Shown here: piece after piece, positions 711 through 780 of the stretch
How the letters are laid out: each line of letters opens with the position of its first letter
Position numbering within the stretch: the first letter of the stretch is position 1
Assembly: GCF_016717175.1 (NCBI RefSeq)
Contig: NZ_JADKFZ010000004.1
Reading direction: 5' to 3' (one strand)
DNA from: Nannocystis sp.
Lineage (GTDB): Bacteria; Myxococcota_A; Polyangia; Nannocystales; Nannocystaceae
DNA: 64,000 nucleotides
Translations under genes and position numbers: made by a program
The notes under the pieces: model-generated
Databases searched by the model: none
The model's input: the letters and a program-made list of their open reading frames with translations, nothing else
What the model was told of the DNA's origin: nothing

Positions 711-780
711 CGGGGGGGGCGGGGGGGGGGGGGGGGGGGGGGGGGGGGGGGGGGGGGGGGGGGGGGGGGGGGGGGGGGGG
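711..780. repeat. homopolymeric G tract (G9-C-G60)
   Basis: Read directly from the sequence: 9 G, one C, then 60 consecutive G. It lies between the partial CDS and the 3' end of the methyltransferase gene. Confidence 0.95.

Follow-up and report, generated by a model that had tools for sequence, protein, structure and literature searches.

A 60-Nucleotide Guanine Run Near One End of a Strain-Specific Insertion in a Nannocystis Assembly: Consensus Artefact or Junction DNA?

The written sequence of a 64,000-nt stretch of Nannocystis DNA (the window, by which the whole analysed stretch is meant) contains a run of 60 guanines, G60, and the best explanation found for it, to which an even chance is given, is that it arose as an artefact of the long-read consensus, or else from a G run whose length was badly misjudged, and is not a faithful copy of the DNA. 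Taken as a whole, an error of sequencing or consensus building and a real homopolymer are roughly equally probable. The figure of 60 for the length of the run is unreliable whether the tract is real or not, because base-calls cannot give the number of bases in long homopolymers. The tract lies close to the edge of a strain-specific insertion and abuts a cut-off coding-like stub, two features that an earlier description of the same DNA from its letters alone (the sequence-only reading) had missed.

Structure and Composition of the Tract

712–780, plus strand: poly-G tract, made up of G8 (712–719), C (720) and G60 (721–780).

Position 711 is a C, and the sequence across the site, read on the plus strand, is ...GTCGAC C G8 C G60 AGCGCC..., the minus-strand reading of 712–780 being C60-G-C8. 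Analysis with TRF returned a period of 1 with 69 copies, a single C interrupting the tract near its anchored end (G8-C-G60). The sequence-only reading had described 70 nt of G9-C-G60 at 711–780; the perfect 60-nt homopolymer was indeed found at 721–780, while the leading G9 has to be corrected to C-G8. The same reading had called such a run extraordinary for a bacterial chromosome. Given the G-run statistics of the window itself (17,612 runs; P(G after G) = 0.349), 1.9e-23 runs of at least 60 G would be expected; the runner-up G run within the 64 kb was found to be 8 nt, with the tract as the sole homopolymer longer than 8 nt there, and no G or C run of at least 11 was found across 1.24 Mb of other bacterial loci. 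With an expectation of about 2e-23 and a next run of 8, the G60 tract is present in the written sequence and is not a product of chance. The G-quadruplex motif (at least four runs of at least three G within a short span) is satisfied trivially by G8-C-G60, at the motif level and with no implication of folding in vivo; the earlier suggestion of a G-quadruplex-forming element therefore holds for the letters as a matter of course, with no bearing on the existence of the tract in the cell.

The window has a G+C content of 71% (G 42.3%, C 29.1%), each of its 2 kb bins has a GC skew near +0.18, and its plus strand is strongly G-rich, with many G6–G8 runs. This asymmetry of G over C is unusually strong and uniform, and the homologous pieces of relatives presented a skew of the same sign (+0.13 for the related locus L082, +0.26 for L083 and L084).

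Gene Neighbourhood and the Inserted Segment

The features around the tract are the following.

2–661, plus strand: conserved hypothetical gene, 3' two-thirds; stop codon at 659–661, start beyond the window.
663–2496, no strand: strain-specific 1.8 kb insertion that separates two conserved genes in convergent orientation, absent in relatives.
668–682 and 696–710, plus strand: direct repeat GGGCAATACG[G/T]CGAC, 15 nt, two copies, both left of the tract.
781–864, minus strand: coding-like stub of 28 codons, with GTG at 864–862 (VSRRLVLPLPGDLTIVSMAVGDRYDIGA), running directly into the tract.
896–1513, minus strand: class I SAM-dependent methyltransferase, 205 aa; stop at 896–898.
1533–2360, minus strand: SCE4755-family polysaccharide-monooxygenase-like (LPMO-like) protein with a MYXO-CTERM sorting domain, 275 aa.
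2453–2496, minus strand: apparent diverged duplicate of the TPR gene's 3' end (compare 2497–2540), at the right edge of the insertion.
2497–3699, minus strand: conserved TPR-type gene; stop at 2497 certain, 5' limit approximate.
3714–5282, minus strand: fused uroporphyrinogen-III methyltransferase/synthase.

The tract was found to be intergenic, between convergent genes, 50 nt past the stop codon ending at 661 and 115 nt past the methyltransferase stop, and its placement at the 3' end of a methyltransferase gene in the sequence-only reading is correct (stops at 659–661 and 896–898). No intrinsic terminator (a GC-rich hairpin followed by a T run) was found on either strand over 500–1100, no promoter-like site was found at the tract and no Rfam family matched there. 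The methyltransferase is identical to MBK7826571.1, MBK9754194.1 and WP_293252008.1, and the LPMO-like protein to MBK7826572.1/MBK9754195.1, all from Nannocystis sp. The TPR gene is given with an approximate 5' limit because the listed open reading frame (2497–4728) has an implausible Arg-rich extension. No NCBIfam match was found for the plus-strand gene at 2–661, homologues of which were found only on a few Nannocystis-like metagenome contigs. This gene has no 100% match in the protein database, although both adjacent genes of those NCBI MAGs have one, and the deposited records may list it as a pseudogene.

Searches reaching out from the flanks gave little. No near-identical methyltransferase fragments were found on further contigs that might reach the tract, and the methyltransferase scan of genome contigs returned, among the matches listed, only homologues of at most 68% identity from other phyla. 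The genomic context of the Sorangium homologue was unrelated, an exact 32-mer from 895–926 had no match in the JGI metagenomes, and no copy of the left 710 nt, direct or inverted, was found elsewhere in the window.

Comparison with related loci placed the tract 50 nt inside the left edge of the segment 663–2496, homology with the relatives ending at 662. In L143 (88% DNA identity) the plus-strand gene and the TPR gene are convergent with a gap of only 28 nt, and in L144 (a Nannocystis sp. MAG, about 79%) the same two genes are convergent with a gap of only 18 nt. L083 and L084 (92%) diverge from the window directly after the stop codon, with a small hairpin as in L143, and their downstream sequence fits the insertion-less arrangement of L143 and L144. 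A different two-gene segment of about 3 kb, one gene of which has a STAS domain, was found at the same spot in L082 (about 80%; L082 750–3834). The segment is missing from three or four related assemblies, and one carries other genes at the site; judging from these alignments 663–2496 is a strain-specific insertion at a variable gene-insertion hot spot. The conserved flanks keep the order and orientation that they have in L082, L143 and L144, and because both are collinear with the relatives the tract joins no unrelated pieces of genome. Nothing resembling the tract was found at the related loci, the 18–28 nt spacer of which carries a small CTGTCC...GGGACAG hairpin. The inspection of the same locus in related genomes that had been proposed earlier therefore returned collinear flanks and no tract.

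At the right edge, 2453–2496 and the last 44 nt of the TPR gene (2497–2540) encode similar C-termini (...NQRLLELAE and ...CRQLLLELAD, respectively, each followed by a stop), and the sequence suggests that the inserted fragment came from a donor with a TPR homologue preceding the LPMO-like gene.

Several other repeats were observed. A GGGACAG / CTGTCC core is common to tandem or hairpin repeats at 3570–3712, 57367–57518 and 58959–59059, and also to the small intergenic hairpin of the relatives (L143 1073–1100); these repeats may form a REP-like element family of the lineage. A tandem repeat at 27583–27736 (54 nt x 2.9 copies, 98% identity) lies where two long plus-strand open reading frames meet. 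Coding-type tandem repeats (16031–16302, 46109–46232) comprise a GAC/AAC-rich 108-nt unit x 2.5, reminiscent of Asp-rich calcium-binding repeats, and a GGTGCC hexamer x 20.

On the right side of the tract, the coding-like stub begins 31 nt past the methyltransferase stop and meets the tract after 28 codons. Its GC contents by codon position are 0.93/0.46/0.75, with 54 of 200,000 shuffles equally periodic, and this three-base periodicity on the minus strand is of the type of the genes in this genome. The stub shared no words with a word-indexed database of 5.8 billion protein clusters, in which no close homologue was found, and it had no Pfam match. A full HMMER search gave only weak repeat-driven matches (a chitin-binding repeat protein and an RCC1-like repeat protein), and the stub weakly resembles one blade of an RCC1-type repeat. 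It would be what remains of a gene, or else the beginning of one whose body the assembly lacks. Since the coding-like stub runs straight into it, the tract marks a breakpoint or coding discontinuity, and the truncation of the stub at that point means that either sequence is missing there or the site is itself a breakpoint.

Direct Repeat and Adapter-Like Letters

The two 15-nt repeat copies are identical at 14 of 15 positions, and the second (696–710) stops 1 nt short of the tract. A 10-nt direct repeat in two copies had been noticed before and described as flanking the tract; the repeat itself stands, in a longer form, and the flanking does not, both copies lying to the left. No third copy of the 10-mer core was found elsewhere in the window, and a paired-motif scan of the JGI metagenomes for the repeat pair returned only two unrelated tandem repeats, and thus no recurrent element.

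Part of the repeat resembles a sequencing adapter. The letters GCAATACGT (698–706) are what we take to be the first 9 nt of the bottom strand of the Nanopore ligation adapter, and GCAATACG (670–677) presumably likewise corresponds to the start of that strand. In the whole 64 kb, with both strands considered, CGTATTGC occurs only at these two sites, each at most 45 nt from the tract. The significance of the adapter-like match was p of about 0.15 in a strict test and p of about 0.02 in a permissive one. A residual Nanopore adapter or chimeric-read junction was considered and rejected, given these weak p values (0.02–0.15), a repeat that outruns its adapter-like part and syntenic flanks; a chimeric-read origin is disfavoured because both flanks are syntenic and do not come from unrelated loci.

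Independent Sequence Support and Sequencing Source

Two short Illumina-only contigs from Logan, the only contigs returned by exact protein look-ups and assembled from two runs that contain this strain or a very close one, together cover 888–2878. The contig L145 (SRR11673999) was found to be 100% identical over 1396–2878, confirming the right insertion junction, and L001 (SRR11674002) showed 99.75% identity over 888–2077 with no indels. L001 ends at 888, neither Illumina contig reaches the tract, and 669–887 is uncovered among the independent sequences retrieved. The G6–G8 runs within genes of the window preserve the reading frame.

The exact protein matches correspond to two deposited Nannocystis sp. 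MAGs and a contig of 915,480 nt. On the strength of the accession series, the organism name and the SRA runs that match, we infer that the window belongs to the Danish activated-sludge MAG set of PMC8012365, presumably under project PRJNA629478; the supplement of that study includes Nannocystaceae MAGs. The genomes of that study were obtained with PromethION R9.4.1 sequencing, Guppy 2.2.3 flip-flop base-calling and CANU 1.8 assembly (corMinCoverage=0, corOutCoverage=all), followed by polishing with Racon, two medaka rounds and then Racon with HiSeq X 2x150 reads (PMC8012365). The HiSeq X is a four-colour instrument. Loss-of-signal poly-G was reported as an effect of two-colour chemistry that runs to the 3' end of reads (PMC13218037).

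Long runs in public assemblies were surveyed in IMG/VR, where 58 loci with a G or C run of at least 60 were found. Among the whole-contig loci, 26 of 29 runs lay at most 150 nt from a contig end and the other three were internal, 600–1030 nt from the end; most long runs in assemblies of short reads are therefore artefacts of contig ends. Such artefacts are common, but they match neither the geometry of the tract nor the platform presumed here.

Possible Origins of the Tract

The explanation of the written G60 as an error of the long-read consensus, either in its existence or grossly in its length, involves a chain of five steps, all of which we infer. The contig would have been built from Nanopore reads, whose base-callers deduce homopolymer length from dwell time and could not count bases, and a pause or unresolvable signal on a short real G run (G8-C-G...) would have been called as many G. 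The site being the left insertion junction, a mixed population may have left fewer reads of the right haplotype spanning it, and the CANU settings of these MAGs would retain read segments that were never corrected. Short-read polishing, finally, would be unable to drop an extra block of about 60 nt, at which 150-nt reads would clip. The use of dwell time for the length of a Nanopore run is illustrated by tailfindr, which measures poly(A) from raw signal (10.1101/588343).

This artefact explanation is favoured because the tract is far outside any other run (8 in the window; none of at least 11 in 1.24 Mb), because it lies 50 nt inside a haplotype-variable insertion edge and abuts a truncated stub, and because the Illumina contigs confirm 888–2878 yet none reaches the tract. 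It is further favoured because the presumed pipeline (flip-flop, CANU with corMinCoverage=0) permits such a route and because G/C runs of at least 60 in public assemblies are overwhelmingly technical-looking (IMG/VR). The likeness to Nanopore homopolymer miscalling is that the number of bases in a long run is unreadable from base-calls; the usual error, however, is compression and not the creation of a 60-mer, which needs thin coverage or a systematic pause. Compression affects runs longer than about 5 nt, and Nanopore errors typically shorten homopolymers and rarely create them, which counts against the artefact.

Other observations point in the same direction. The 915 kb contig implies decent coverage, and Racon with two medaka rounds should out-vote one aberrant read. 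Polishing is good elsewhere in the window, with G6–G8 runs in frame and Illumina contigs that match without indels, which argues against an artefact, and the flanks are collinear with relatives, so that real molecules cross this point. We know of no documented artefact in which a pure G60 arose from such a Nanopore/CANU pipeline, and the link of the window to that pipeline is itself drawn from accession numbers, the organism name and matching SRA runs.

The second explanation takes the tract as real, a poly(dG.dC) run of several tens of nucleotides, probably heterogeneous in length, at the left junction of a recent 1.8 kb insertion, and it is possible, though short of an even chance. The more specific claim, that of a genuine run of about 60 nt or longer as junction or filler DNA at a foreign 1.8 kb fragment, is advanced tentatively and with some doubt. 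Such a tract could be a junction scar, in which a short G run grew by replication slippage on the G-rich strand, or it could be filler added on the joining of a foreign fragment that ends inside a gene remnant; it would be length-hypermutable and G-quadruplex-prone, and a function is not required. The collinearity of both flanks with relatives and the high quality of the neighbouring sequence are in its favour, as is the tendency of a multi-read Nanopore consensus, the presumed source here, to under-call homopolymers more than it invents them. The short-read platform presumed is four-colour, so the usual source of poly-G is absent. Additionally, G8-C-G60 is imperfect at its anchored end, the G6–G8 runs on the G-rich plus strand could seed slippage, and the stub and the duplicated TPR end give the insertion ragged edges, of the kind left by illegitimate recombination, where filler could occur.

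Nevertheless, no bacterial precedent for a real tract is known to us, and such a run should be extremely unstable. The Illumina contigs stop at 888, so that no independent assembly supports the tract, and no related locus is similar. If genuine, it would be, as far as we know, the longest homopolymer of any bacterial chromosome, and the literature, searched for myxobacteria with long G tracts and for Nanopore MAGs with poly-G artefacts, yielded nothing relevant. The G tracts of Caenorhabditis are each much shorter than 60 nt. They are genuine genomic tracts; like the present one they are long, G-quadruplex-prone, hard to assemble and liable to deletion, and they were described as stabilised by the DOG-1/FANCJ helicase (Zhao, O'Neil and Rose 2007, via PMC5793790). 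Caenorhabditis, however, is a eukaryote with hundreds of tracts per genome, whereas here a single tract occurs in 64 kb of a bacterium and is known from the assembly alone.

A two-colour Illumina artefact, in which no-signal poly-G reads entered the assembly or the polishing, is improbable. It was the artefact that the sequence-only reading had in mind; error as a class is now the leading explanation, and the two-colour mechanism finds little support in an internal run with collinear flanks and, presumably, four-colour HiSeq X data. Long G runs in public assemblies come most often from two-colour chemistry and lie mostly at contig ends (IMG/VR), the three internal IMG/VR cases at 600–1030 nt from the end are comparable with a tract 711 nt from the window start, and loss-of-signal poly-G is documented for two-colour chemistry (PMC13218037), the chemistry of NextSeq and NovaSeq. 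The tract resembles such tails carried into assemblies in being pure G, in its length of roughly a read or k-mer and in having no biological context. It differs from such tails in being internal to the window and well polished, with flanks syntenic with L082, L143 and L144, and in coming, it seems, from four-colour HiSeq X reads on a Nanopore backbone. Two 3' poly-G tails that met would presumably give G(n)C(n) and not A-G60-B, the orientation rule for poly-G tails held in only 17 of 26 terminal IMG/VR cases, and in short-read polishing poly-G reads could presumably map only where the draft already had a long G seed.

The weakest explanation, a functional element in the form of a contingency tract or of a G-quadruplex/R-loop barrier between convergent units, is very improbable: the tract meets any definition of a G-quadruplex motif, lies between convergent genes without a detected intrinsic terminator and crosses an open minus-strand frame that a 1-nt length change would alter, but it is outside the promoter or 5' coding part of any credible gene, touches only a 28-codon stub without a close homologue, has no conservation or Rfam match, stands where relatives manage with a small hairpin in an 18–28 nt spacer, and would have to be real in the first place. 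Contingency tracts are about 7–20 nt long, and those of Campylobacter, Neisseria, Haemophilus and Bordetella are alike in being G/C homopolymers that must slip in replication. They sit in promoters or the 5' parts of genes, whereas the tract here is 60 nt long and lies between two 3' ends. Of the contingency or slippage tract put forward in the earlier description, the switch is not supported, the position between convergent 3' ends arguing against it and the length being several times that of known phase-variable tracts, and slippage would be unavoidable if the tract is real. Phase-variable homopolymeric tracts as a concept were reviewed from PMC2831843 and PMC8808543, the former of which gave no maximum tract length.

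Significance

If the G60 is an artefact, a deposited high-quality MAG holds an untrustworthy run of 69 nt, and the local annotation (the spacer, the stub open reading frame and any poly-Gly or poly-Pro reading frames) is affected. It would also mean that long-read pipelines, and not just two-colour Illumina sequencing, can introduce poly-G blocks where haplotypes diverge. Should the tract be real, this Nannocystis would be an outlier in bacterial genome stability, with a homopolymer at least three times the length of known contingency tracts at a recent insertion scar. Slippage of an extreme kind, or G addition without a template in DNA joining, would be indicated, with a very strong G-quadruplex former tolerated, and the tract would offer a natural test case for the origin of such a junction and for replication across a perfect G-quadruplex-forming sequence in a bacterium of high GC content.
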